This document shows, in pieces, positions 19,759 through 58,685 of a stretch of 64,000 nucleotides of DNA. Below the pieces are notes generated by a model. The model was given only the letters and a program-made list of their open reading frames with translations. It was not told the origin of the DNA and searched no databases. Location: NCBI GenBank assembly GCA_964619405.1, contig CAZUCF010000001.1:33633-97632 (forward strand). The letters are read 5' to 3'. The DNA comes from an uncultured archaeon (GTDB lineage: Archaea > Iainarchaeota > Iainarchaeia > Iainarchaeales > JAAZKV01). Each line of letters begins with the position of its first letter. The first letter of the stretch is position 1. Position numbers and translations under genes: made by a program.

Positions 19759-22746
19759 ATGGTTACTGATTACTTGGAAGACTTATTAAACGAGGCAAAA
19801 AAAGATTCTAATAATAAAGAAGTGATTAAGGAAAACACACAAAAAATTAGTGAAGAAGAAGTTGCTAAAGATGTTAAAAAAGAGGATTTAAAAAAATTTG
19901 AGGAAAAACTTTCGCAAAACGAACTAGAACAAAAAATTGAACCAAACGACAAAAAAGAAAAAACAGAAGTAGAAAAAGAGTTAGAATCACAAAAAAAAAT
20001 TGAGTTAAAAAAATATGGAAAAACAACTATTTACGAAGTTCCAGGCAAAGCAATGAAATATTATTTTGTACCAACATTAAGACCAACATCAGCTGAAAGA
20101 AAAATAATTAATACTATAAAAGAAGCAACAACAAGACTAATTAGTATTGCACCATTCAGAATAAGAAATAATGATGAAAGAAGAATAATTTACAAGCAAA
20201 AAGTTCTTGACATAATAAAAAATAACCCATCATTAAACATTCCACCAACAAGAGTATCATTTTATGCTGACGCGGTAGTAAGAGAAATGGTTGGGTACGG
20301 TTTAATTGATGATTTAATAAAAGACGATAATTTAGAAGAAATAATGATTGTTGGCTCCAAAAAACCTGTTTTTGTTTTCCACAGAGAATATGAAATGATG
20401 CAAACTAATATAGAATTTTTTTCAGAACAAGAAATTGAGGATTTAGTAAACAAAATCGCAAGAGAAGTTGGACGAAGAGTAGATGTGTCAGCACCACTAC
20501 TTGACGCGAGATTATCTGATGGTAGCAGAATAAATGCTACAATACCACCAGCAAGTATTAGTGGTGGAACACTAACAATAAGAAAATTTAGGGAAGACCC
20601 TTACTCAATAATAGATTTAGTAAGAATGAATACTTTGAATAGTGAGGCAGCAGCGTTCCTATGGATGTGCGTTGATGGACTAGGAGTAAAACCAGCAAAC
20701 ATGCTGATTAGTGGTGGTACTGGCTCAGGAAAAACAACTCTTTTGAATGTGCTAGCATCATTCATACCAGAAAGAGAAAGAATAGTAACAATAGAAGACA
20801 CGGCAGAATTAAACCTACCCTTAAAACACTGGATTAGATTAGAAGCAAGGCCACCTGGATTAGAAGGAACAGGCGAACTAAAAATGGATATTCTAACAAA
20901 AAATTCTTTGAGAATGCGACCAGACAGAATAATTGTTGGAGAAGTAAGACACGAAGAAGCATTCACATTATTCACTGCTATCAACACGGGGCATGATGGA
21001 GCAATAATTGGTGAAAGCTTAATACAATTATCAAACGGAGAATTAATTGAAGCACAAAAACTATGTGAAAAATATTTTGATAAACCAATAAAAGAAAATG
21101 ATTACGAATTTGTTGAAATTAACGACGAATTATTTGTTCCAAGTTTAAACAAAGAAACATTAAAAATAGAAGACAAAAAAATAAATAGGATTTGGAGAAA
21201 AAAGAATGAAAAAAAATTGTTAAAAATAAAATTGCGTTCTGGAAAAGAATTAATCCTAACTAAAGATCATCCAATTTACAAAATTTGCAATGGAATAAGT
21301 GAAATAAATGCAGAAAATGTTTTAATTGGGGATTATATTGCCACACCAACAACAATAAAAATGAAATCTGAAGAAAGTATTGAGTGCCCATATTATTTAG
21401 GATTAGTTTATGGTGATGGGCACATAGGACAAGAAAGTATTGAATTTACAAACAAAGAAATTTCTCTAATAAATGCTTTTGAAGAAGAAGCAAAACAAAT
21501 AACAAAAAATAAAATTAAAAGAAAATTAAAAAATGCATATTATAGTTCATTTTATGATAAAAAAGCAGTGCGAAACCTAAACATAAATTATGAAATACCA
21601 ATTGGAAATAAAACAAAAACATTTGTACTAGGAAAAGAAATCATGCAAGGAAACGAAAAAGATTTAAGTGAATTAATAAAAGGGTTATTTGATTGCGAAT
21701 CACATGTTAACTTGCATTCAAACAGCATACAATTTTCTACATCAAATTTTGATTTAGCAAAAAAACTACCTTTAATATTACAAAGATTCGGAATACAATC
21801 CTCAACAAACATTCAAGAAAAAGATGGTAAAGGAAATATTGGACCATATTACAGAATATCAATTTATGGAAAAGACAATTTAGAAAAATACTCTCAAAAA
21901 ATTGGTTACAAGCATTCAGCAAAAAAAGAAGCATTAAAAGAATTAATTAAAAAATCAAAAAACTCTTTAGATTTGTTTCCAAACATGCAAAATGTTTTAA
22001 GGGATTTGAGAACAGAAAATAATTTAACACAAAAAGAATTATCTTTTTTAATTGGTAATAATACACCAAGTGTTTCATTATCACACGAAATAGGGACAAG
22101 AGCACCAACAAGAGAAATGTTAGAAAAAATTTGTAAACAAACCAATGGTAAAACAAAAAAACAATTAGAAATATTAACAAAATCAGATATTAGGTTTGAA
22201 AAAATAATTTCAATAAGCGAATATAATTACGATGGTTTTGTTTATGATTTAACTGTTGAAGACAACCATAATTACATTGCTAACGGAGTAATAATAAGTA
22301 ATTGCCTTGGAACAGTACACGCGAATTCTCCAGAAGAAACAATAGTAAGAGTGACTAGCCCGCCAATGAATGTACCAAACATAATGCTCTCAGGATTAGA
22401 CATGATAATAGTTGAACACAGGTACCACGACAGAAAAAAAGGAACTATTAGAAGAATAAGTGAAATAGCAGAAGTATATGGGGGCCTAGAAGGAAAACCA
22501 AAAACACAAACATTGTTTCAAAGAGATGCTGTAAAAGATTATTTGGAAAGAACAATGATTGATAGCATGTACTTAAAACAATTAAGAACTTTTACTGGTT
22601 TGTCAAAAGATAATTTGGATGCTGAGTTAAAACTAAGACAACAATTCATAGAAAATCTTGCTGAAAAAAATTTGAGAGAATTAAAAGATGTTAGTAAGAA
22701 AGCACATGACTTCATTAACAAAAGAAATCTAGGTGAAAAAATATGA
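19759..22746 (+). CDS. KlbA/TadA/FlaI-family secretion ATPase of the type IV pilus system, interrupted by an intein
   Basis: The extein carries the Walker A GGTGSGKTT, IEDTAELNL, the Asp box and His box NTGHDG...CLGTVHANS. A 434-aa insertion lies between TGHDG and CLGTVHANS. The assembled extein is about 562 aa. Confidence 0.85.
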   Translation: MVTDYLEDLLNEAKKDSNNKEVIKENTQKISEEEVAKDVKKEDLKKFEEKLSQNELEQKIEPNDKKEKTEVEKELESQKKIELKKYGKTTIYEVPGKAMKYYFVPTLRPTSAERKIINTIKEATTRLISIAPFRIRNNDERRIIYKQKVLDIIKNNPSLNIPPTRVSFYADAVVREMVGYGLIDDLIKDDNLEEIMIVGSKKPVFVFHREYEMMQTNIEFFSEQEIEDLVNKIAREVGRRVDVSAPLLDARLSDGSRINATIPPASISGGTLTIRKFREDPYSIIDLVRMNTLNSEAAAFLWMCVDGLGVKPANMLISGGTGSGKTTLLNVLASFIPERERIVTIEDTAELNLPLKHWIRLEARPPGLEGTGELKMDILTKNSLRMRPDRIIVGEVRHEEAFTLFTAINTGHDGAIIGESLIQLSNGELIEAQKLCEKYFDKPIKENDYEFVEINDELFVPSLNKETLKIEDKKINRIWRKKNEKKLLKIKLRSGKELILTKDHPIYKICNGISEINAENVLIGDYIATPTTIKMKSEESIECPYYLGLVYGDGHIGQESIEFTNKEISLINAFEEEAKQITKNKIKRKLKNAYYSSFYDKKAVRNLNINYEIPIGNKTKTFVLGKEIMQGNEKDLSELIKGLFDCESHVNLHSNSIQFSTSNFDLAKKLPLILQRFGIQSSTNIQEKDGKGNIGPYYRISIYGKDNLEKYSQKIGYKHSAKKEALKELIKKSKNSLDLFPNMQNVLRDLRTENNLTQKELSFLIGNNTPSVSLSHEIGTRAPTREMLEKICKQTNGKTKKQLEILTKSDIRFEKIISISEYNYDGFVYDLTVEDNHNYIANGVIISNCLGTVHANSPEETIVRVTSPPMNVPNIMLSGLDMIIVEHRYHDRKKGTIRRISEIAEVYGGLEGKPKTQTLFQRDAVKDYLERTMIDSMYLKQLRTFTGLSKDNLDAELKLRQQFIENLAEKNLRELKDVSKKAHDFINKRNLGEKI
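21001..22302 (+). mobile_element. intein (KlbA-type, Ala1...Asn, +1 Cys) with LAGLIDADG homing endonuclease and HTH
   Basis: The intein starts AIIGESLIQLSNGE immediately after the TGHDG extein motif and ends YDLTVEDNHNYIANGVIISN before CLGTVHANS. Internal LAGLIDADG blocks are LGLVYGDGHIG and IKGLFDCESHV. The paralogous ATPase at 43314..44837 has the uninterrupted NNGHSGCLGTIHANN. Confidence 0.8.
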
Positions 22747-23837
22747 GTGACTTAAAAATTAATGAAGAAGAAGTAAACCAAATAGTAGAAACAATGAAAA
22801 AAAAATATAGGCAAGAAGGAATTGAAATTGAAGATGTTGATAACAGTTTAAAAGAATTAAGAGGAATAATTGCTGATAATTCTTACTCAAAAATTGATTT
22901 GGAAAATGAAGAGGACTTAGAACAATTTGGCTCAAATTTGGTAAAACAATTAGGAAACATTTATGTTAAATTAAAAAAAATACTTAAACCAATAAAAAAT
23001 ATTTTGAAAGAATTTCCTTTGAGTGAGGAAATAGGTTACTATCTTTACTCAGCAAACATGCGTTACTCAGCAAACCAATATTTAGCATTAGCTAGCGCAA
23101 GTGGCTTTGTAGTAGCATTACTAACAATAATAATAATTTTTTTTATAGGCGTAATATCACAAGATTTGTTATTCACAATTATTGTTCCAATAAGTGCTGG
23201 TTTTGTAGCATGGTTATTTTCAACAATAATAATATTATATTTACCAAAAAAGTTTGCAAAAACTAGGGGCGCAAAAATTTCTGTTGAACTACCATTTGCT
23301 TTAAGACACATGTCAACAGAACTCAAAGCAGGAATAGGCTTGTACAAAACAATACAAGCAATAGCAATAAATGATTACGGTGTCCTAAGCGAAGAATTTT
23401 CAAGGACAATAAATGAGATAGAAGAAGGCTCTGATACATCAACAGCATTAAAACACACTGCCTTAAGAACACAAAGTTTACCATTAAGAAAAGCTATTAA
23501 CCACATACTAAGAGCAATGCGTATTGGTGGGAACCTTTCAGATACCATGAATGACATAGCAGAAGATGTTTCAACCGAAATGAAAAACAGGATAGGAATT
23601 TTTTCCCAAAAAATGAATTTTTTTTCAGTAATATTTATTTTCATTGGAATTGTTTTACCAGTAGCAATAATGATTCTTGGTTCAATAAGAAATTCCCCGT
23701 TAGCAGCAACAGGAGAAGATTTATTCAAAAACATTCCACTAACACCCGAAATAATGTTTTTGATTTACATAATAGGAATGCCAATAATTTTTTTGTTAAT
23801 GATTTTTATGGTTTACAACATGCAACCAAAAATGTGA
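22743..23837 (+). CDS. pilus assembly platform protein, T2SS-F domain (TadB/FlaJ-like)
   Basis: The T2SSF-like region ELKAGIGLYKTIQAIA...LRAMRIGGNLSDTMNDIAEDV is flanked by TM helices. The ORF overlaps the ATPase stop (ATGA). Confidence 0.75.
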   Translation: MSDLKINEEEVNQIVETMKKKYRQEGIEIEDVDNSLKELRGIIADNSYSKIDLENEEDLEQFGSNLVKQLGNIYVKLKKILKPIKNILKEFPLSEEIGYYLYSANMRYSANQYLALASASGFVVALLTIIIIFFIGVISQDLLFTIIVPISAGFVAWLFSTIIILYLPKKFAKTRGAKISVELPFALRHMSTELKAGIGLYKTIQAIAINDYGVLSEEFSRTINEIEEGSDTSTALKHTALRTQSLPLRKAINHILRAMRIGGNLSDTMNDIAEDVSTEMKNRIGIFSQKMNFFSVIFIFIGIVLPVAIMILGSIRNSPLAATGEDLFKNIPLTPEIMFLIYIIGMPIIFLLMIFMVYNMQPKM

Positions 23838-23841
23838 TTTT

Positions 23842-24750
23842 ATGGATTTGATTACAAAATACAATGATTGGGTAAAATTTTCTAAGTTACCTTATAACGC
23901 AATTGTTTGGGTTAGCCTAGCAATAGGAACAACAATACTAGTAGCAATTGTTTCAATAATACTAAATTTTTTCATACTACAAGAAATGACTTTATTACCC
24001 ATTGCTTTTACAACAGCAACACTAGTACTAATGCTTGGTTACCCTTACATGAAAAAAGAATCAATCATTGATACAATAGAATACAATTTTAGTGACGCTC
24101 TAAAACAAATGGCTGATACTTTAAAAGCAGGAGACACTTACGAAAGCGCTTTAAGAGAAGTAGTTAACTCTGGTTATGGTAGATTATCAGACGAAATGCA
24201 AATCGCTTTAATAAGATTAGAAGAAGGAGAAAACATTGACACATCATTAAGGGGCTTCGCAGAAAGAATTGATTCAAGACTAATAAAAAGAACTATAACA
24301 ATATTATTAGACTCAATAAAAACTGGTGCTAGTCTAGCAAATATTTTAGAGGACATTGCAGACGATGTTAGAGAATCATACAGATTAAAAGAAGAAAGAA
24401 AAGCGAACACAACAATGCAATTCATGTTCATGATTGCTGCAAGCGGTTTTATAACACCGCTAATCTTTGGGGAAATAACAGCAATAATGAATTTGTTTGG
24501 AAGAATAACTGTAACACAATTACTCGCAGGACAAGCAATAACTGGAAACACTGCAACAAACTTTGTTTTCATTCTAATACAAGCTTATCTAATAATAGAG
24601 GTCATTGCTTCAGGAGTAATGATGGCTATAATAAGAGAAGGAAAATTTGGAAAAAGTATTATTTACATTCCCCTCTTACTAATAATAGTTTTCTTAACCT
24701 ATTATCTTACAAGTTATGTAATAAGTTTAATGTTACTAGGTGTATTTTAA
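23842..24750 (+). CDS. second pilus platform protein, T2SS-F domain (TadC-like)
   Basis: The T2SSF region is LKQMADTLKAGDTYESALREVV...LDSIKTGASLANILEDIADDV. There are TM helices at both ends. Confidence 0.75.
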   Translation: MDLITKYNDWVKFSKLPYNAIVWVSLAIGTTILVAIVSIILNFFILQEMTLLPIAFTTATLVLMLGYPYMKKESIIDTIEYNFSDALKQMADTLKAGDTYESALREVVNSGYGRLSDEMQIALIRLEEGENIDTSLRGFAERIDSRLIKRTITILLDSIKTGASLANILEDIADDVRESYRLKEERKANTTMQFMFMIAASGFITPLIFGEITAIMNLFGRITVTQLLAGQAITGNTATNFVFILIQAYLIIEVIASGVMMAIIREGKFGKSIIYIPLLLIIVFLTYYLTSYVISLMLLGVF

Positions 24751-24890
24751 TGGAAGAAAAAGCACAAGTGAGTTTAGAGTACTTGCTAATAATAATTGGG
24801 GCAATAATAGTTGTTACAACAGTCGCAATGTACATTAAGGCAACAGCACAATCAACAACACAAGCAATACAAGAACAAGGAAAAAACTAG
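24750..24890 (+). CDS. Flp-like minor/major pilin, 46 aa, class III signal peptide
   Basis: The ATG overlaps the TAA of the upstream gene. Translation is MEEKAQVSLEYLLIIIGAIIVVTTVAMYIKATAQSTTQAIQEQGKN. The KAQ|VSLEYLLII segment matches the archaeal prepilin signal. The ORF is not in the track because it is shorter than 60 aa. Confidence 0.7.
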   Translation: MEEKAQVSLEYLLIIIGAIIVVTTVAMYIKATAQSTTQAIQEQGKN

Positions 24891-25139: not shown

Positions 25140-25424
25140 ATGGATAAAAAAGGACAAGGAGCAATTGAATACTTATTAATCATTGGAGCAGCAATACTTG
25201 TTGTAGCAGTAGTAATAATAGCACTAGTTAGTGTTACAGGAGCAGCAACAGATGATACAACAGGAGAAGAGGCTCAAGCAGCACAACTATTACAAAGTTG
25301 TATTGCATCATGCGGAACAATTGGCGGAGACTGGAATTATAATGATAATTTGTGTTATTCAATAGCACAACCAACTAACTGGCCAATCAAATGTTACGAC
25401 TATAACGCAATAGCAGTTAACTAA
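25140..25424 (+). CDS. archaeal type IV pilin, class III signal peptide, Cys-rich C-domain
   Basis: Begins MDKKGQGAIEYLLIIGAAILVV. The C-terminal domain has six Cys. Confidence 0.8.
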   Translation: MDKKGQGAIEYLLIIGAAILVVAVVIIALVSVTGAATDDTTGEEAQAAQLLQSCIASCGTIGGDWNYNDNLCYSIAQPTNWPIKCYDYNAIAVN

Positions 25425-25444: not shown

Positions 25445-25480
25445 GAAAAGGCCTTAACGCCTTTTCAAAAACTATTTTTT
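25445..25480 (+). terminator. hairpin plus T-tract terminator after the pilin gene
   Basis: An 8-bp stem (gaaaaggc/gccttttc, 25445..25466) with a cttaac loop is followed by T7 at 25474..25480. Confidence 0.45.
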
Positions 25481-25548
25481 TGATACTAAAACAGAGTAAT
25501 TTAAAAATAACAAAAAACACAATAAGTAATATAATTATTGTGATAAAA

Positions 25549-28500
25549 ATGCAAAATGAAGAAAATTTAGCGCAAACAGCAATAGAGTACTTGCTAATAA
25601 TAGCAGGCGTAATTATTATTGTTACAATAATAGCTTTTTTTTCTAAGTCAATAATGCTAACCGCAACACAAACAATTGACGAGACAATAAACCTTGAAGA
25701 AGAAGTAAAAGTAACCGAAAACAAAATTTCGTTATACTATCCCAATAATACAACATATTTAACAGGAAAAATAATTTTTGCTTACGCGCCACAAAGCCCA
25801 ATTGAAATAAACTCGTGCAAATTAATAGTAAATGAAAAAGAAGAAGAAATTAATTTTAGTATTAGCAAAAACAAAATGAATATTTTTGAAAAAGATGCTA
25901 ATGATTTTCCAATAGGAAATCATTCTTGGAATATTGAGTGCGAAGACTCAAACAATGCTTTGTTCCAAGGAACACAAAAATATTTTACAATCCAAGAAGG
26001 AATCGTTGAACCAGAACAACCAATTGAACCACCACCATTACTATTTTCTGGCGGAGACGGAACAATAAACAACCCATACCAAATAACAAAAATAGAACAC
26101 TTAAACACAATAAGATACTACCCAGACAAAAATTTCATTCTAATGAATGATCTTGATTTTGAAAACAATTCTAATTACAATAACCCAATATACAAAAACT
26201 ATTTTATAACAAATGAAGGATGGAAATCAATAGGAATAACAAATTATTGTATTACAAATATTGTAAATCTTTATTGTAAGTATAATAGTAGTAAGACCAC
26301 TTGTGAAAATTCTTGTGATGGAAATTATATTGATGGAAACATATTCACTGGAAACTTTAACGGAAATAATCACACAATAAAAAATTTGTATTCAAACAAA
26401 CCACTGCATAATTACATAGGATTATTTGGAAGCACTAACAATTCACAAATAAAAAATTTGATTATAGAAGACGCAAACATAATTGGAAGAGATTACACAG
26501 GAGGAATAATAGGTTACGCAAACAACTCAATAATTAATAATATTAGTTTTGAAGGAATTATTTCAGGAAAAAATTATGTTGGCGGAATAATTGGAAGCGC
26601 AAACAATTCACAAATAAATATTTTAAAAAATACTAGTAATATAAACGCACAAGAAGTTGTTGGAGGAATAATAGGACAATCAGATCAACACACAATAATA
26701 ACAAACACACAAAACATTGGAAGCATAAATGGAATAACGGATGTTGGAGGAATAGCTGGAAGAGCACCCAATATTCAAAATTCTTTAAATTCAGGAGATA
26801 TCAATGGAACAGAAAACATTGGAGGAATAATGGGCCAATCAAACTCATTATATACTAATAATATAAAAAACACATACAACATTGGAACAATTAATGGCAA
26901 CACTAATGCAGGTGGTTTTGCCGGTAAATTAAATTCAACAATTGGAATAACCAATTCTGGTTGGTGGACGGGAACAACAACACAATCAATCGGAACACAC
27001 CCTGATTATGAACTAACTTATAATGAAATAAATAAAACAAATTTTTACCCAACAGAACATTTAATTTACACCAATGGAAATGAACCATGGGACTTTGATA
27101 ATATTTGGTTAGAAAGAGACAACAATTACCCAATACTAAGAATAATAAATGAATCAGAAACACCAACACCCCCACAACAAGAACTACCACCAGTACAATT
27201 CGCTGGCGGAGACGGAACAATAAACAACCCATACCAAATAACAAAAATAGAACACTTAAACACAATAAGATACTACCCAGACAAAAATTTCATTCTAATG
27301 AATGACCTTGATTTTGAAAATGACAATGATTACAACAACTCAGAAAACAAAAATTATTTTATAACAAACGAAGGATGGAGCTCAATAGGAAAAAAAACTT
27401 ATTGTGAAACAAGCAGCACCAACACAATTTGTAAAAATAATCAAACAACTTGTGAATTCACATGCAATGGAATATGGTTTGAAGAAAATTTATTCACAGG
27501 AAATTTTAACGGAAATTACAAAAAAATAAATAATTTGTATTCAAACAAACCATTACACGATTACACAGGATTATTTGGAAGCATTAAAAATTCTGAAATA
27601 AAAAATTTGATTATAGAAGACGCAAACATAATTGGAAGAGATAACACAGGTGGAATAATAGGCGATGCAAACCTCGCAAAAATCAATAATGTAAGTTTTA
27701 AAGGAATTATTTCAGGAAAAAATAATGTGGGCGGAATAACAGGAAATATAAGTAGCTCAAATATTGATAATACAAAAAATTTTGGAAAAATAAATGCACA
27801 AGAAAATGTAGGAGGAATAACCGGGAATGTAAAAAACACTTCAATAAACAATGCATTTAATACTCAAGAAATAAACGGAACAACAAATGTCGGAGGAATA
27901 ACCGGGAACCATTCTGGTGGATTAATTACCAATGTAATAAATATTGGCCAAATTAATGGAACAATAAATGTTGGAGGAATAGCTGGAAGAGCACCCAATA
28001 TTCAAAATTCTTTAAATTCAGGAGATATCAATGGAACAGAAAACATTGGAGGAATAATGGGCCAATCAAACTCATTATATACTAATAATATAAAAAACAC
28101 ATACAACATTGGAACAATTAATGGCAACACTAATGCAGGTGGTTTTGCCGGTAAATTAAATTCAACAATTGGAATAACCAATTCTGGTTGGTGGACGGGA
28201 ACAACAACACAATCAATCGGAACACACCCTGATTATGAACTAACTTATAATGAAATAAATAAAACAAATTTTTACCCAAAAGAACACCTAATTTACACAG
28301 CTCAATCACCAATCTGGGATTTTGAAAACACTTGGTTAGAAAGAGACAACAATTACCCAATACTAAAAACAATGAATGAAATAGAACGCTTACCCCAGTT
28401 CCCAAATGGCGATGGAACAATAAACAACCCATACCAAATAACAAAAGTAGAACACTTAAACACAATAAGATACTATTTAAACTCAAATTTTGTTTTAATG

Positions 28501-29598
28501 AATGACCTAGACTTTGAAAACAATAATAATTATATTAATCCTGAAAACAAAAATGATTTTATATTTGGAGAAGGTTGGGATCCTATTGGAAAAACAAATT
28601 ATTGCATAACAAGCAATACTACTACAAATTGTAATGACTGGAAAAGTGTTTGTGAAAATACTTGCAAAGGAATTTGGATTGAAACAAATTTATTCACAGG
28701 AAATTTTAACGGAAATAATAATACAATAAAAAATTTGTATTCAAACAAACCACAACACAATTACACTGGATTATTTGGAAGCATATCTAATTCAGAAATA
28801 AAAAATTTGATTATAGAAGACGCAAACATAATTGGAAAAGAATTTATAGGTGGAATAATTGGTAGCACAAATTATTCAATAATAAATAATGCAAGTTTTG
28901 AAGGAAACATTTCAGGAAAAAATTATGTTGGCGGAATAATTGGTTACGCAAATAACTCTGACATAAATAACACAAAAAATTATGGAAAAATAAATGCACA
29001 AGACAGAGTAGGTGGAATAATAGGATCGGTCGTACGCAGTAAAATAAACAATTCTTTTAATAATAACAAAATATCTGGTGCAAACTCTATTGGCGGAATA
29101 ATAGGCTTTTCACAAGGAGCCACAACAAAATACACAAATGTAATAAATATTGGAAGCATAAATGGGCAAACTAATGTTGGCGGAATAATTGGTTACGATT
29201 ATTATTCAGAAATAAAAAACTCTTTAAATGCAGGAGATATCAATGGAACAAGCCAAATAGGAGGAATAACCGGCCAAACAATTAATCAAACAAACAAAAT
29301 AGATAATTCATATAATATTGGTTTGATTACAGGTACTGAAGATATTGGGGGAATAATAGGAAACATTTATTCAACAACATCATTAACAATAACCAATTCA
29401 GGTTGGTGGACAGGAACAACAACACAAGCAATCGGAAACAACACAACTATTGTGTTCAGTTATAATGAAACAAACAAAACAAATTTTTACCCAAAAGAAC
29501 ATTTAATTTACACCAATGGAAATGAACCATGGGACTTTGATAATATTTGGTTAGAAAGAGACAACAATTACCCAATACTAAGAATAATGAATGAATAA
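25549..29598 (+). CDS. giant (~1350 aa) pilin-fused surface adhesin with three tandem ~400-aa beta-helix/GLUG-like repeat modules
   Basis: The likely true start is M24 of the track ORF (MQNEENLAQTAIEYLLIIAGVIIIV), a class III signal peptide. Three modules follow, each starting GGDGTINNPYQITKIEHLNTIRYY and containing many (N)xVGGI(I/T)G repeats about 19 aa apart. Confidence 0.8.
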   Translation: MQNEENLAQTAIEYLLIIAGVIIIVTIIAFFSKSIMLTATQTIDETINLEEEVKVTENKISLYYPNNTTYLTGKIIFAYAPQSPIEINSCKLIVNEKEEEINFSISKNKMNIFEKDANDFPIGNHSWNIECEDSNNALFQGTQKYFTIQEGIVEPEQPIEPPPLLFSGGDGTINNPYQITKIEHLNTIRYYPDKNFILMNDLDFENNSNYNNPIYKNYFITNEGWKSIGITNYCITNIVNLYCKYNSSKTTCENSCDGNYIDGNIFTGNFNGNNHTIKNLYSNKPLHNYIGLFGSTNNSQIKNLIIEDANIIGRDYTGGIIGYANNSIINNISFEGIISGKNYVGGIIGSANNSQINILKNTSNINAQEVVGGIIGQSDQHTIITNTQNIGSINGITDVGGIAGRAPNIQNSLNSGDINGTENIGGIMGQSNSLYTNNIKNTYNIGTINGNTNAGGFAGKLNSTIGITNSGWWTGTTTQSIGTHPDYELTYNEINKTNFYPTEHLIYTNGNEPWDFDNIWLERDNNYPILRIINESETPTPPQQELPPVQFAGGDGTINNPYQITKIEHLNTIRYYPDKNFILMNDLDFENDNDYNNSENKNYFITNEGWSSIGKKTYCETSSTNTICKNNQTTCEFTCNGIWFEENLFTGNFNGNYKKINNLYSNKPLHDYTGLFGSIKNSEIKNLIIEDANIIGRDNTGGIIGDANLAKINNVSFKGIISGKNNVGGITGNISSSNIDNTKNFGKINAQENVGGITGNVKNTSINNAFNTQEINGTTNVGGITGNHSGGLITNVINIGQINGTINVGGIAGRAPNIQNSLNSGDINGTENIGGIMGQSNSLYTNNIKNTYNIGTINGNTNAGGFAGKLNSTIGITNSGWWTGTTTQSIGTHPDYELTYNEINKTNFYPKEHLIYTAQSPIWDFENTWLERDNNYPILKTMNEIERLPQFPNGDGTINNPYQITKVEHLNTIRYYLNSNFVLMNDLDFENNNNYINPENKNDFIFGEGWDPIGKTNYCITSNTTTNCNDWKSVCENTCKGIWIETNLFTGNFNGNNNTIKNLYSNKPQHNYTGLFGSISNSEIKNLIIEDANIIGKEFIGGIIGSTNYSIINNASFEGNISGKNYVGGIIGYANNSDINNTKNYGKINAQDRVGGIIGSVVRSKINNSFNNNKISGANSIGGIIGFSQGATTKYTNVINIGSINGQTNVGGIIGYDYYSEIKNSLNAGDINGTSQIGGITGQTINQTNKIDNSYNIGLITGTEDIGGIIGNIYSTTSLTITNSGWWTGTTTQAIGNNTTIVFSYNETNKTNFYPKEHLIYTNGNEPWDFDNIWLERDNNYPILRIMNE
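26050..29595 (+). repeat. three tandem intragenic repeat units (26050..27204, 27205..28404, 28405..29595) with perfectly identical sub-segments
   Basis: Perfect DNA identities are 26741..27052 = 27968..28279 (312 bp), 26048..26150 = 27203..27305 (103 bp) and 27054..27146 = 29496..29588 (93 bp). Confidence 0.85.
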
Positions 29599-43313: not shown

Positions 43314-44837
43314 TTAGTTTTTACCTAATATTGTTGACAAAACTTTTTCTGGTGAAAAATAATAACTTTGAATAACTTCAAGAATTTCTTCAGGTTTTGA
43401 AAAATCATTTTCAACCATCCAAGACAAAATCAATTGTCTAGTTTCAATTTCCTTTTTCAAAACATTTTTTTCAATTGAATTTTGCTCGGCAAATTTTTCA
43501 ATAACATGACTTGGAATATTTGTCCTAGTTAAAGAAGAATTATTTAATTCAAAAACATTTGCTAACAAAATCTTATCATCCATTCTTGAGACCTCTGAAA
43601 TTTGCGAAACTTTTCTAATAACCCCTTCTTTAGAAAAATTTTTTTGCAAAACAACAATTAAATCAACCAAAGACAATAATGATTTAGGAACATCAAATGG
43701 TTTTTCACATAACTTATCAACGGTTTCTCTAGCATTGTTAGCATGAATAGTTCCAAGACAACCAGAATGCCCATTATTCATTGCAGTAAAAAGTGTTAAT
43801 GCTTCACTACCCCTTACTTCACCAACAATTATTCTGTCAGGCCTCATTCTCAAAGAATTTTTTAATAAATAATTCATTGAAATTTCATTATCTTTTGAAT
43901 GAATTGCTTCTAAAGCAACCCAGTTCTCCCTATTAAGAAAATTTAGTTCAAGAGTATCTTCTATTGAAATAATCCTTTCATTTAATCTAATAAAATTTGA
44001 TAGAACAGAGAGAAAAGCAGTTTTTCCTGTTGCTGTTCCACCAACAATAAGAATGTTTTTTGGGTTAACCCCAAACCCATCAACCATTACCCACAAGAAA
44101 GCAGCAGCATCAACATTAATAGTATTATTTTTTATCAAATCAATAATTGAAAGCGGATTATGAGAAAACTTTCTAATTGTAAGAGAAACCCCTTTTGGAG
44201 AAATATTATTCATTGTTGCATTTATCCTGCTACCATCAGGCAAATGAGCATCAAGCAAAGGATTATTATAATTAAATTCTTTCCCAACACTAAAAGCTAT
44301 TTTTTGAACCAAATTATTAAAACTTTTTTCATCAAGAACAAGATTAGTCTTACACACGCCAAATTCTTTATGAAAAACAAAAACCTCGTTTAAAGCATTA
44401 ATCATTAATTCTTCAAAACCTTTTTCAATAAAAAAAAAAGATAATTGTTTCAAACCAATCGCATTATGAAAAACAGTTTCAGCAAAAATAGATTTGTTTG
44501 AAATAAAATCAATATCTTTAATCAAATAAATTAATGATTCCACAAGCGAAACAAATAATTTCAAAGAAGAAATCTTTTCCAACAAACCATTTAAATCAAT
44601 AACCGAAATAATATTTTCCCTAAAATTAGACAAAAAATCTTCTGAAACACCAAAATCATTTATTTCAGAAAAAGATGCCTTCCTTTTAATAATATCTTCT
44701 AAAAAAAAAGCAAATTTTTGCTCTTTTTCAGAAAAATACACTTCTTTTAAATCATAATAATTATGCGCAAGACCCTTGTAGAATACGCCAAGTTCAGATT
44801 CATGCATTTTACCCAAACGAATCTCATTAAACTTCAT
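43314..44837 (-). CDS. second FlaI/TadA/GspE-family secretion ATPase, intein-free
   Basis: Contains LLDAHLPDGSRINAT, the Walker A GGTATGKTA, IEDTLELN and the His box NNGHSGCLGTIHANN. Confidence 0.85.
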   Translation of the reverse strand: MKFNEIRLGKMHESELGVFYKGLAHNYYDLKEVYFSEKEQKFAFFLEDIIKRKASFSEINDFGVSEDFLSNFRENIISVIDLNGLLEKISSLKLFVSLVESLIYLIKDIDFISNKSIFAETVFHNAIGLKQLSFFFIEKGFEELMINALNEVFVFHKEFGVCKTNLVLDEKSFNNLVQKIAFSVGKEFNYNNPLLDAHLPDGSRINATMNNISPKGVSLTIRKFSHNPLSIIDLIKNNTINVDAAAFLWVMVDGFGVNPKNILIVGGTATGKTAFLSVLSNFIRLNERIISIEDTLELNFLNRENWVALEAIHSKDNEISMNYLLKNSLRMRPDRIIVGEVRGSEALTLFTAMNNGHSGCLGTIHANNARETVDKLCEKPFDVPKSLLSLVDLIVVLQKNFSKEGVIRKVSQISEVSRMDDKILLANVFELNNSSLTRTNIPSHVIEKFAEQNSIEKNVLKKEIETRQLILSWMVENDFSKPEEILEVIQSYYFSPEKVLSTILGKN

Positions 44838-56009: not shown

Positions 56010-57183
56010 AAAAATAATTTACCTTGACAATAGTGCGACAACACAAACAAGAAAAGAAGTGTTAAAAGAAACACAAAAATATTTTTTAAAAGAATTTGGA
56101 AATCCAAGTTCATTTCATTCAAAAGGATTTGAAGCAAAAAAAGCAATAAATAAATCAAGAGAAACAATTGCAAGAATATTGGGTTGTGAAAAAGAAGAAA
56201 TAATATTTACTGGATCAGGAACAGAAAGCATTAATTTAGCAATAAAAGGAATTGCTTTCAGAGAATTGTTAAAAGGAAGAAAAGGACATTTTATAACACA
56301 AAAAACAGAACATGACGCTGTACTAGAAAGCATGCACTGGTTAGAAAAACTTGGTTTTGAAGTAACTTACATTAATGTTGATGAAAACGGTTTAATAAAA
56401 TTAGGTGAATTAGAAAAAAAAATTAGGAATGATACTTTATTAGTTAGCATAATGTATGCTAACAATGAAATAGGAACAATACAACCAATAAAAAAAATAT
56501 CAGAAATATGCAAAAATAAAAATATTTTATTTCACACTGATGCCTGTCAAGGAGCAGAATACTTGAACCTAAATGTAAAAGAATTAGGAATAGATTTAAT
56601 GACAATAAATGGAAGCAAATTATATGGTTTCAAAGGAACAGGTTTATTATACAAGAAAAAAAAAGTTGAAATAGAACCAATAATTCATGGTGGAAAACAC
56701 GAGTTTGGTTTAAGAGCAGGAACGGAAAATGTAACAGGAATAATTGCTATAGCAAAAGCACTAGAAATAGCAGAAAAAGAAAAAAAAAATGAAACAAAAA
56801 GACTTGAAAAACTAAGAGATTATATGATTAAACGAATACTAAAAGAAATAAATAAAACAAAATTAAATGGTTCAAAAAAAAGGTTACCAAACAATGTAAA
56901 CATTTCATTTTATGGCGTAGAAGGAGAATCAATATTATTAATGTTGAACGAGAAAAGAATAATGGTTTCAACAGGATCAGCGTGCTCATCACAATCACTA
57001 GAACCAAGCCACGTGCTAATGGCAATAGGCCTCCCACACGAATTAAGTCACGGGAGTATAAGATTTAGTTTAGGAAAAACCACTACAAAAAAAGATGTTG
57101 ATTACACAATAACAGAATTAAAAAAAATAATAAAAAAACTGAGAAAAATGAGTCCTGTTTGGGAAAAGGAGTTGAACAAATGA
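55990..57183 (+). CDS. iscS: cysteine desulfurase (IscS/NifS family)
   Basis: Begins IYLDNSATT, continues with the PLP-lysine region INGSKLYGFKGTGLLY and ends with SCSSQSLEPSHVLMAIGL. The start is likely the ATG at 56002. Confidence 0.9.
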   Translation: MVRKMSKKIIYLDNSATTQTRKEVLKETQKYFLKEFGNPSSFHSKGFEAKKAINKSRETIARILGCEKEEIIFTGSGTESINLAIKGIAFRELLKGRKGHFITQKTEHDAVLESMHWLEKLGFEVTYINVDENGLIKLGELEKKIRNDTLLVSIMYANNEIGTIQPIKKISEICKNKNILFHTDACQGAEYLNLNVKELGIDLMTINGSKLYGFKGTGLLYKKKKVEIEPIIHGGKHEFGLRAGTENVTGIIAIAKALEIAEKEKKNETKRLEKLRDYMIKRILKEINKTKLNGSKKRLPNNVNISFYGVEGESILLMLNEKRIMVSTGSACSSQSLEPSHVLMAIGLPHELSHGSIRFSLGKTTTKKDVDYTITELKKIIKKLRKMSPVWEKELNK

Positions 57184-58685
57184 AATTTGAAGGACAAGAC
57201 TGGTTTTATTCAGCAACAGTAAAAGAGCATTTCTTGAAACCAAAAAATGTTTTAAAAAATGAAGGAGAAATAAAAAATTATAATGGTTATGGTAAAGTAG
57301 GGAACATGAAATGTGGAGACATAATGGAATTATGGATAAAAATAGAAAAAGGAATAATAAAAAAATGTAAATGGAGAACATTTGGTTCTATTCACCCACA
57401 AGAAAAAGTTTTAATGAGTGATTATACATATAAAGCAGCAAAAAATATAAAACCCGGAAATGTTATCATAGATGGCAATGGGAAAAAAAACCTTGTTGAA
57501 ACAAAAAAAGAAAAAGACTATTCTGGAAAATTAATAACTATTTTTTTGTCAACATCCAAATTTTATAATTTTACAGTTACCCCTAATCATCCAATTCAAA
57601 TAATAAAAAGAAATCAAGTTTCAATGATAAATAGATTAAAAGGAACCCATTGGTCAGAAGTATCTCAAAAAAAAATTGATTTTGCAGAATCTCAAATTTA
57701 TTCAGCAAGTGAATTAAGAAAAAGCGATTTTGTTTTATTTGGAATTTCAAAATTCACAAAAGATTCAAACGAATTAACTAAAGAATTATGCACTCTCTTA
57801 GGATATTATGTGTCAGATGGTGGAATACCTTCAAAAAACAGAGTAATATTTTATTTTGGTTTAGGCGAACAAAAATACATTAAAGAAATTGAAACAATAT
57901 GTAAAAAAAACAAATGGAAAACAATAACTTATAAAAGAAATACTGAAAATGTTTATTGCATACAAATAAATGAACCAAAAATAGCAGCAATACTTAGAAA
58001 ACACGGTGGTGAATCTGGAAACAAAAAATTTTCAGAAACCGTTCTCGTGTTACCAAAACAAAAACAACTAAAAATAATTAATTCATATGTAAATGGAGAT
58101 GGTTGGACAACACAACAAAATAAAAATTGGGAACCCCAATTTTTCATATCAACTTCAAACGAAATCATAGCAAATCAACTCCAAATGATGTTGGCCAGAA
58201 ACAAAATTTTTGCACCATTACATTATAGAGAACCACGAAAATTTGTAATAAAAGGAAAAACTTACAAAAATAAAGGCGAAATAAATTTGGTTTTCAGAAA
58301 AAATACAAAATATTCAAGAATAAAATTTAGTAAAAAAGAAAATGCTTTTTTAATACCAATATCAAAAATAATTGAAACTGATTATAATGGAAAAATAGTG
58401 GATTTGAGTCTTATTGAAACCCCAAACACATACAAAATAAAAGGAATATCAATTCATAATTGCGCAAGCGCAATAGCATCAACAAGCATGCTATCATTAA
58501 TGATTACAGAAAATGGTGGAATGAAAATAAAAGATGCTTTAAAAATAACTGGAAAAGATATTACAGAAAGATTGAAGGGCTTGCCCCAAATAAAAATTCA
58601 TTGCTCGGTTTTGGGCGACGAAGCACTAAGAGAAGCAATAAAAGATTATGAAAAAAAGCAAGAAATTAAAAACTCTGAAAAATAA
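57159..58685 (+). CDS. iscU: Fe-S cluster scaffold IscU/NifU, interrupted by an intein
   Basis: The extein is FYSATVKEHFLKPKNV...GNMKCGDIMELWIKI...KWRTFG | CASAIASTSMLSLMITENGGMKIKDALKIT...LPQIKIHCSVLGDEALREAI. It is 150 aa when joined. A likely start at 57180 overlaps the iscS stop (ATGA). Confidence 0.85.
   Translation: MGKGVEQMKFEGQDWFYSATVKEHFLKPKNVLKNEGEIKNYNGYGKVGNMKCGDIMELWIKIEKGIIKKCKWRTFGSIHPQEKVLMSDYTYKAAKNIKPGNVIIDGNGKKNLVETKKEKDYSGKLITIFLSTSKFYNFTVTPNHPIQIIKRNQVSMINRLKGTHWSEVSQKKIDFAESQIYSASELRKSDFVLFGISKFTKDSNELTKELCTLLGYYVSDGGIPSKNRVIFYFGLGEQKYIKEIETICKKNKWKTITYKRNTENVYCIQINEPKIAAILRKHGGESGNKKFSETVLVLPKQKQLKIINSYVNGDGWTTQQNKNWEPQFFISTSNEIIANQLQMMLARNKIFAPLHYREPRKFVIKGKTYKNKGEINLVFRKNTKYSRIKFSKKENAFLIPISKIIETDYNGKIVDLSLIETPNTYKIKGISIHNCASAIASTSMLSLMITENGGMKIKDALKITGKDITERLKGLPQIKIHCSVLGDEALREAIKDYEKKQEIKNSEK
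57387..58460 (+). mobile_element. intein (Ser1...His-Asn, +1 Cys) with LAGLIDADG homing endonuclease domain inside iscU
   Basis: The intein begins SIHPQEKVLMSDYTY right after TFG and ends KIKGISIHN before CASAIAS. The LAGLIDADG blocks are LLGYYVSDGGIP and INSYVNGDGWTT. It is 358 aa. Confidence 0.8.

Follow-up and report, generated by a model that had tools for sequence, protein, structure and literature searches.

Within a 64,000-nucleotide stretch of contig CAZUCF010000001.1 (hereafter the window; an uncultured archaeon of the Iainarchaeota, assembly GCA_964619405.1), the gene of a FlaI/KlbA/CpaF-type type IV pilus ATPase is split by an insertion of 434 residues that lies inside the His box of the enzyme. 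With a probability that we put at about 0.85, this insertion is a full-length class 2 intein of the KlbA type, orthologous to the KlbA intein of Methanocaldococcus jannaschii, which would splice, carry a homing endonuclease and move by homing in the pilus ATPase of a DPANN archaeon that is a near relative of Candidatus Iainarchaeum. Both the splicing and the endonuclease activity are predicted by analogy with its relatives. The parts of the precursor gene are listed below (aa, amino acids; ORF, open reading frame; pLDDT, the local confidence score of the AlphaFold2 (AF2) model).

19759..22746, + strand: precursor ORF of 995 aa, FlaI/KlbA/CpaF-type type IV pilus (T2SSE) ATPase split by the intein (T2SSE, 1.3e-36)
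19759..21000, + strand: N-extein, aa 1-414, with the C-terminal end ...FTAINTGHDG, the first half of the His box, Gly at -1
20713..20736, + strand: Walker A, GGTGSGKT, within the precursor ORF
20923..20949, + strand: Walker B, DRIIVGEVR, within the precursor ORF
21001..22302, + strand: intein of predicted class 2 (KlbA-type), 434 aa, Ala1 ... Ser433-Asn434
21001..21360, + strand: HINT N-terminal lobe, with block A AIIGESLIQLSNG and block B GKELILT87KDH90PI92Y; aligns with residues 13-131 of the M. jannaschii KlbA intein; pLDDT 86-93
21361..21960, + strand: LAGLIDADG homing-endonuclease domain (LAGLIDADG_3, 2.4e-15 on aa 224-302 of the intein alone)
21397..21423, + strand: LAGLIDADG motif 1, LGLVYGD139GH
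21679..21705, + strand: LAGLIDADG motif 2, KGLFDCE233SH
21997..22146, + strand: HTH_3 (Xre-type helix-turn-helix, HTH), aa 333-382, between the endonuclease and the HINT C-terminal lobe
22183..22302, + strand: HINT C-terminal lobe, with block F GFVYD416LTVEDNH423NY425IA and block G NGVIIS433N434
22303..22746, + strand: C-extein, aa 849-995 and the stop codon, beginning with Cys+1 (TGC): CLGTVHANSPEE, the second half of the His box

Junctions of the interrupted ATPase

The motifs of T2SSE ATPases are Walker A, the Asp box, Walker B and the His box, and it is the last of these that is interrupted. TGHDG ends at residue 414 and CLGTVHANS begins at residue 849, so that residues 415-848 (nucleotides 21001..22302) form an in-frame insertion whose first codon is GCA (Ala) and whose last codon is AAT (Asn), the codon at +1 being TGC (Cys). 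A first-pass annotation of the window had described a 434-residue insertion at 21001-22302, placed exactly between TGHDG and C-LGTVHANS, with an Ala start, an Asn end and Cys at +1; its coordinates proved exact and the codons are those expected. Since one histidine of the His box lies on either side of the insertion, the unspliced precursor of this secretion-superfamily ATPase should be inactive.

Excision of the intein in silico leaves an ATPase of 561 residues whose junction, NTGHDG/CLGTVHANSPEE (slashes mark junctions throughout), is residue for residue identical to that of an intein-free ortholog, protein P0164 of locus L082; the flanks thus rejoin into a continuous His box. The predicted peptide across the spliced junction is ...NTGHDGCLGTVHANSPEETIVR, and the rejoined DNA site of the host gene reads TTCACTGCTATCAACACGGGGCATGATGGA/TGCCTTGGAACAGTACACGCGAATTCTCCA. 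Other boundaries, or a hidden Cys or Ser start, are ruled out by the same ortholog, which pins the junction to the residue. An RNA intron in place of an intein was also considered and rejected, as Rfam and tRNA scans of the window returned one tRNA-Pro and nothing near the insertion.

When the whole precursor was searched against Pfam, T2SSE (1.3e-36, on both flanks), Intein_splicing (5.5e-27), LAGLIDADG_3 (1.9e-13) and HTH_3 were matched; with the insertion alone, the E-value of Intein_splicing was 6.3e-30. An open frame of 434 codons would arise by chance with a probability of approx. 3e-20 (25% G+C, approx. 0.098 stops per codon), which indicates that the insertion is translated as part of the protein. 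The G+C content is 25.1% in the intein, 32.7% in the exteins and 27.5% in the window, a contrast from which nothing can be concluded on recent transfer, conserved ATPase cores being as a rule richer in G+C than the remainder of an A+T-rich genome.

Splicing residues and intein class

Class 1 inteins start with Cys or Ser; the KlbA-like inteins that constitute class 2 have neither an N-terminal nucleophile nor a Trp-Cys-Thr (WCT) triplet; and class 3 inteins, which also lack the N-terminal nucleophile, carry this triplet as B:12 Trp, F:4 Cys and penultimate Thr (PMC2807308). When class 2 was later described, every known member was an ortholog of KlbA that had Ala1 and, in the penultimate position, Ser (PMC4031507). 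The C-terminal junction of the window intein, ...VIIS433-N434/C(+1)LGT, shows Cys+1, a terminal Asn and a penultimate Ser instead of His, and the WCT triplet was not found in it, the three positions being occupied by Ile92 (B:12), Asp416 (F:4) and Ser433 (penultimate). Because of Ala1, Cys+1 and the missing triplet, the intein is assigned, on its sequence, to class 2. It shares with class 3 inteins such as that of the mycobacteriophage Bethlehem DnaB type the lack of a nucleophile at position 1; however, class 3 requires the triplet and usually shows Ser or Thr at +1 in helicase-type hosts (PMC2807308), and membership in this class is ruled out by Ile92, Asp416 and Ser433, besides the presence of Cys+1. 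The arrangement had been called "class-3-like" in the first-pass annotation; this was a mislabel, given that KlbA inteins define class 2 and that no triplet is present here.

Blocks A, B, F and G of the Hint fold are all present, both by the Pfam Intein_splicing match and by alignment to the M. jannaschii KlbA intein. Among solved structures the top match was to this same protein (MJ0781 KlbA intein, 2JMZ/2JNQ; E 5.6e-25), in two pieces that correspond to the HINT N- and C-terminal lobes. An alignment of 16 inteins from the KlbA ATPase site allowed the following residues to be equated (window intein, M. jannaschii KlbA intein, block position):

Thr87, Thr93, B:7
His90, His96, B:10
Asp416, Asp147, F:4
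His423, His154, F:13
Tyr425, Tyr156, F:15
Ser433-Asn434, Ser167-Asn168, block G

In alignment A2 Ala1 is near-invariant, and Thr87, Asp89, His90, Pro91 and Asp416 are invariant. The Thr and His of block B (positions 7 and 10) and the Asp of block F (position 4) have been implicated in the activation of the N-terminal junction and of Cys+1 (PMC2807308). The AF2 model of the intein, built on a 9-sequence alignment, has a mean pLDDT of 75.8. Confidence is high for the HTH, for both splicing lobes and for the second lobe of the endonuclease. In Foldseek the model is matched best by two endonuclease-containing archaeal inteins, TliVMA (7QSS, 1.8e-21) and PI-PfuI (1DQ3, 4.3e-20), and its HINT lobes are aligned with 2JMZ at 41% identity.

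From these correspondences a course of splicing can be proposed. The 995-residue precursor would be translated as a single chain in which Ala1 makes the N-S acyl shift impossible; instead, the thiol of Cys+1 would attack the Gly(-1)-Ala1 amide directly, aided by Thr87 and His90 of block B and by Asp416 at F:4. Such a direct attack is the mechanism described for class 2 inteins (PMC2807308, PMC4031507). Its product would be the standard block G branched thioester, from which cyclisation of Asn434 would free the intein, and a spontaneous S-to-N shift would then link ...NTGHDG to CLGTVHANS..., giving the 561-residue ATPase with an intact His box. Once excised, the 434-residue protein probably cleaves alleles of this ATPase gene that lack the intein, and would spread in this way by homing.

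The system that is closest in kind is the KlbA intein of M. jannaschii. In both cases the host is a VirB11/FlaI/KlbA-type secretion ATPase, the site is GHDG/C-x-GT-x-HANS, and Gly at -1, Ala1, the penultimate Ser, the terminal Asn, Cys+1, the Thr and His of block B and the Asp, His and Tyr of block F are shared. The M. jannaschii junctions (P0010) read ...NTGHDG/ALAYDE...GFAVSN/CSGTLHANS, and its host exteins are 50% identical to those in the window. The KlbA type proposed in the first-pass annotation is therefore borne out as orthology by the common site, the best PDB match (2JMZ) and the matching block residues. On the other hand, the M. jannaschii element is a mini-intein of 168 residues without endonuclease in a hyperthermophilic methanogen, whereas the window intein has 434 residues with LAGLIDADG and HTH domains and its host is a DPANN archaeon with 27% G+C; the +1 context also differs, CSGT in the former and CLGT in the latter. 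Full-length inteins at the KlbA site of Thermococcales and Methanococcales agree with the window intein in site, in Ala1, in Ser-Asn/Cys and in the order HINT-N, LAGLIDADG, HTH and HINT-C, although they come from a different host phylum; those of Thermococcus sp. JdFR-02 (L018, 433 aa) and Methanothermococcus sp. Ax23 (L021/P0016, 436-437 aa) are 44-47% identical to it over the full length. Long KlbA inteins of Pyrococcus are also listed in InBase. Beyond the KlbA site, the fold and domain order are like those of archaeal class 1 endonuclease inteins (TliVMA 7QSS, PI-PfuI 1DQ3 and PI-TkoII 2CW7; Foldseek E 1.8e-21 to 4.8e-17, TM approx. 0.6), and inteins of the MCM and SRP54/FtsY types (P0033-P0062, P0074, P0132, P0135) carry a homologous LAGLIDADG and HTH module at 27-36% identity; these class 1 inteins differ in their Cys or Ser start and in their host genes. 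Descriptions or direct parallels thus exist already for the family, for its insertion site and mechanism class, and for the form with an endonuclease; a mild novelty lies in the DPANN host lineage, probably mesophilic, together with the breadth of the family and its variation at position 1 as seen in related loci.

This variation concerns several inteins of the same site. Position 1 is Met in P0005, P0006, P0007, P0020 and L011, Val in P0019 and P0021, Arg in L026 and Ser in L006; P0104 combines Cys1 with a Gly-Asn/Ser+1 end, and P0018 ends in His-Asn. Contrary to published descriptions of class 2, not all the inteins found between GHDG and C-x-GT have Ala1 and a penultimate Ser, the penultimate residue being sometimes His or Gly. 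The position-1 variants could be natural transitions between class 1 and class 2, or sequencing errors in metagenome-assembled genomes (MAGs). One of these proteins, the ATPase P0019 (1594 aa), holds two inteins, one with Cys1 after the Asp box TIED-S (...HN/TAELNLPLEH) and the Val1 intein at the KlbA site in the His box.

Endonuclease, empty sites and the second ATPase

The LAGLIDADG blocks and the HTH noted in the first pass were recovered with Pfam LAGLIDADG_3 and HTH_3; on the intein alone the latter, whose curated cut-off is 23, scores 25.1 bits, and it is modelled as a helical bundle at pLDDT 85-94. An HTH after the endonuclease recurs across the lineage of KlbA-site inteins, and also in the related MCM and SRP54/FtsY-type inteins. 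The acidic catalytic residues Asp139 and Glu233, and the motifs to which they belong, are kept in the full-length relatives (P0002, P0015-P0018). Conservation of the domains was compared as protein identity per domain, dN/dS being unsuitable with the nearest allele at 64% protein identity, where synonymous sites would be saturated. Against P0002, identity is 56-63% in the endonuclease and 64-68% in the splicing domain; against P0015, it is 75% in the second endonuclease lobe and 50-60% in the splicing domain. Full-length alleles of 433-438 residues occur in 21 species genomes of Iainarchaeota, Micrarchaeota, Thermococcus and Methanothermococcus (L003-L009, L011-L022). This even conservation of the domains, together with the constant length of the alleles, argues for selection acting on the whole intein protein.

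Some points weigh against a spliceable and homing intein. The first LAGLIDADG half (aa 124-207) has a pLDDT below 50 in the AF2 model, which rests on nine sequences, has no Pfam match, and is the least conserved segment of the intein (19-56%), and motif 2 terminates in Ser, not in Gly; the second lobe, in contrast, is confidently modelled, and the strong matches to TliVMA and PI-PfuI were obtained with the whole model. The splicing mechanism, in turn, is carried over from an M. jannaschii ortholog that is approx. 43% identical in the splicing domain, and the class 2 inteins that have been studied come from hyperthermophiles, the host here being presumably a mesophile.

It could be, though we consider it somewhat unlikely, that splicing works while the endonuclease is inactive or decaying, in which case the intein would be kept only by the need of the ATPase for precise splicing and would no longer be mobile. 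The weakness of the first LAGLIDADG half fits this alternative, as do the many same-site relatives that are mini-inteins without endonuclease (P0005, P0029, P0031, P0075 and the Methanocaldococcus alleles) and the paralogous ATPase gene of the same genome, described below, which is uncut and empty. However, Asp139, Glu233 and their motifs are conserved in all the full-length relatives, the frame has no frameshifts or stops and its length is held across phyla, the second endonuclease half exceeds the splicing domain in identity to P0015, and the patchy presence and absence among close relatives fits continuing gain and loss. Among the mini-inteins, P0029 (857 aa) has lost the LAGLIDADG domain and retains the whole HTH, and in P0005/L046 (755 aa) only a remnant of the segment that follows the HTH is left; these different deletion end-points look like snapshots of endonuclease loss.

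The distribution of the family was surveyed in 1.84 billion representative proteins, searched by protein without a profile, with 2802 matches; the top ones were all inteins at the same ATPase site. Approximately 45 species genomes (one genome was scanned per species) carry an intein at the KlbA site, in full-length or mini form, and belong to Candidatus Iainarchaeum, Micrarchaeota, Methanocaldococcus, Methanothermococcus and Thermococcus; the arrangement is accordingly less unusual than had been assumed in the first pass. Scanned with the KlbA-intein alignment, viral_contigs yielded distant inteins only (up to 23% full-length identity), none of them at the KlbA site. The closest intein allele is 64% identical, and the nearest ones, of Iainarchaeota and uncultured archaea, range from 53 to 64% (L002-L013). 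Two of the related loci deserve a comment. The contig of L006 (JAFCBY010000013.1), labelled Candidatus Falkowbacteria bacterium, encodes an archaeal FlaI/KlbA-type ATPase with a full-length, 53% identical intein at the KlbA site, and is probably a mis-binned archaeal contig. In the Iainarchaeum allele L001/L003 (JAPLVQ010000108.1, 1..3400; 59% identical) the host ATPase is frameshifted near the P-loop, and a run of its bases is masked; this looks like an error of MAG assembly more than a pseudogene, and it was not counted as decay.

The nearest orthologs of the host ATPase are all free of intein (84%, 83% and 76-77% identity, 553-567 aa). The 84% ortholog, P0164, lies in the syntenic locus L082 (GCA_028702895.1, labelled Candidatus Iainarchaeum sp.), which shares with the window the gene order ProRS, ThrRS, ATPase, two T2SSF genes and pilins; the last 200 residues of the N-extein are 96% identical between the two loci and the C-extein 83%. 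Occupancy is hence sporadic, with the nearest relative empty and more distant ones occupied, as expected of a mobile intein, and homing would account for an intein that this locus has and its nearest syntenic relative lacks.

Another empty site is found within the window itself.

43314..44837, - strand: paralogous T2SSE ATPase, 507 aa, with the unbroken His box NNGHSG-CLGTIHANN; the equivalent junction falls between bases 43761 and 43760

The paralog is 47% identical to the host ATPase over the ATPase core, and alignment of the two confirms the earlier proposal that it serves as an internal control for the insertion site; nevertheless, the syntenic ortholog of L082 is a better empty-site control. 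The second part of that proposal, that the paralog is a possible homing target, stands less well, and an active endonuclease with the in-window paralog as a real (ectopic) target appears to us quite improbable. The junction is kept at the codon level (GGT/TGT CTT GGA AC), and the paralog DNA site is identical to the rejoined host site at 16/20, 21/30 and 28/40 positions. The empty site of L082 gives 17/20, 24/30 and 31/40, and other occupied sites 18-27/30; as the paralog falls within the range of the occupied sites, identity of the site DNA alone decides nothing on homing. In an ATPase clade that is closer to the paralog than to the window host, the same site is taken by two inteins of the KlbA family, the Ala1 mini-intein of P0075 and the full-length one of L023; the ATPase of P0075 scores 449 bits to the paralog and 341 to the host. 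Against this, the paralog is empty despite the presence of the intein in the same genome, the intein domain is absent from its 85 closest homologs (51-100% identity, 502-522 aa), and the mismatches cluster at the junction, where AAT..TCT (Asn/Ser) stands in place of ACG..GAT (Thr/Asp) and ACT ATT in place of ACA GTA.

That the interrupted gene is a dead, non-splicing pseudogene whose function is supplied by the uninterrupted paralog is very improbable indeed: the second ATPase of the window and the frameshifted, N-masked locus L001/L003 (apparently a matter of assembly quality) can be cited in its favour, but the 995-codon frame is intact, with its intein part alone so unlikely by chance, all the splicing residues are kept, the exteins remain 83-96% identical to the intein-free ortholog, the operon is undamaged and syntenic, its pilin genes and both T2SSF genes included, and the paralog falls in a conserved clade of its own, a member of which accompanies the host-type ATPase on a 100-kb contig of a relative (P0287, P0164), so that the two are not redundant copies.

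Genomic surroundings and meaning for the family

A type IV pilus operon opens with the host ATPase gene and continues as follows.

22743..24750, + strand: two T2SSF membrane platform genes (TadB/TadC- or FlaJ-like), 22743..23837 and 23842..24750 (T2SSF, 9.1e-21 and 9.4e-17)
24750..24890, + strand: pilin-like gene with an archaeal class III signal peptide, ...KAQVSLEYLLIIIG
25140..25424, + strand: pilin-like gene with an archaeal class III signal peptide, ...KGQGAIEYLLIIGA

The order ATPase, T2SSF, T2SSF is the same in L001 and L082, and in L082 the syntenic pilin genes have Class_IIIsignal matches and are followed by a prepilin peptidase gene. Just downstream of the pilus operon, an ORF of 1372 aa (25480..29598, + strand) begins with a pilin-like class III signal peptide (...AQTAIEYLLIIAGV) and has, in its interior, three long repeats in which GGIxG-type motifs abound, with a weak match to Peptidase_M26_N; its product is probably a giant surface or adhesin protein with a pilin-type anchor. 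A second intein of the window, of 358 aa (approx. 57387..58460, + strand), is located in an ORF of 508 aa (57159..58685) for an IscU/NifU_N-type Fe-S scaffold, with the junctions ...KWRTFG/SIHPQEKVLM ... KGISIHN/CASAIASTSM; its Ser1, His-Asn end and Cys+1 form a class 1 pattern, and it has a weak LAGLIDADG_3 match.

Class 2 is the smallest mechanistic class of inteins, and in the literature consulted every known member is an ortholog of the KlbA intein of M. jannaschii and comes from a hyperthermophile. The window intein leaves the known working of the class unchanged and adds to it an intact full-length member with an endonuclease, from a DPANN archaeon of low G+C, within a family that extends through Iainarchaeota, Micrarchaeota, Methanococcales and Thermococcales and is far broader than the five members by which the class was defined. 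It is also a candidate in which class 2 splicing might take place at moderate temperature.

A bolder view, which we regard as unlikely, is that this is a functional class 2 intein derived from a mesophile, with a live endonuclease, in a lineage that naturally crosses the boundary between class 1 and class 2, and that its splicing is possibly conditional, for instance on redox state through Cys+1 and the five cysteines of the intein, thereby gating pilus assembly. If this were true, the origin of the direct attack of Cys+1 on the amide and homing from paralog to paralog would both become testable, because the position-1 variants are at hand together with a trio formed by the occupied gene, the empty paralog and the empty syntenic ortholog. 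The occupied and empty syntenic alleles constitute a natural pair for homing assays, and the natural variants at position 1 provide a series in which to study how the first step of splicing becomes dispensable.

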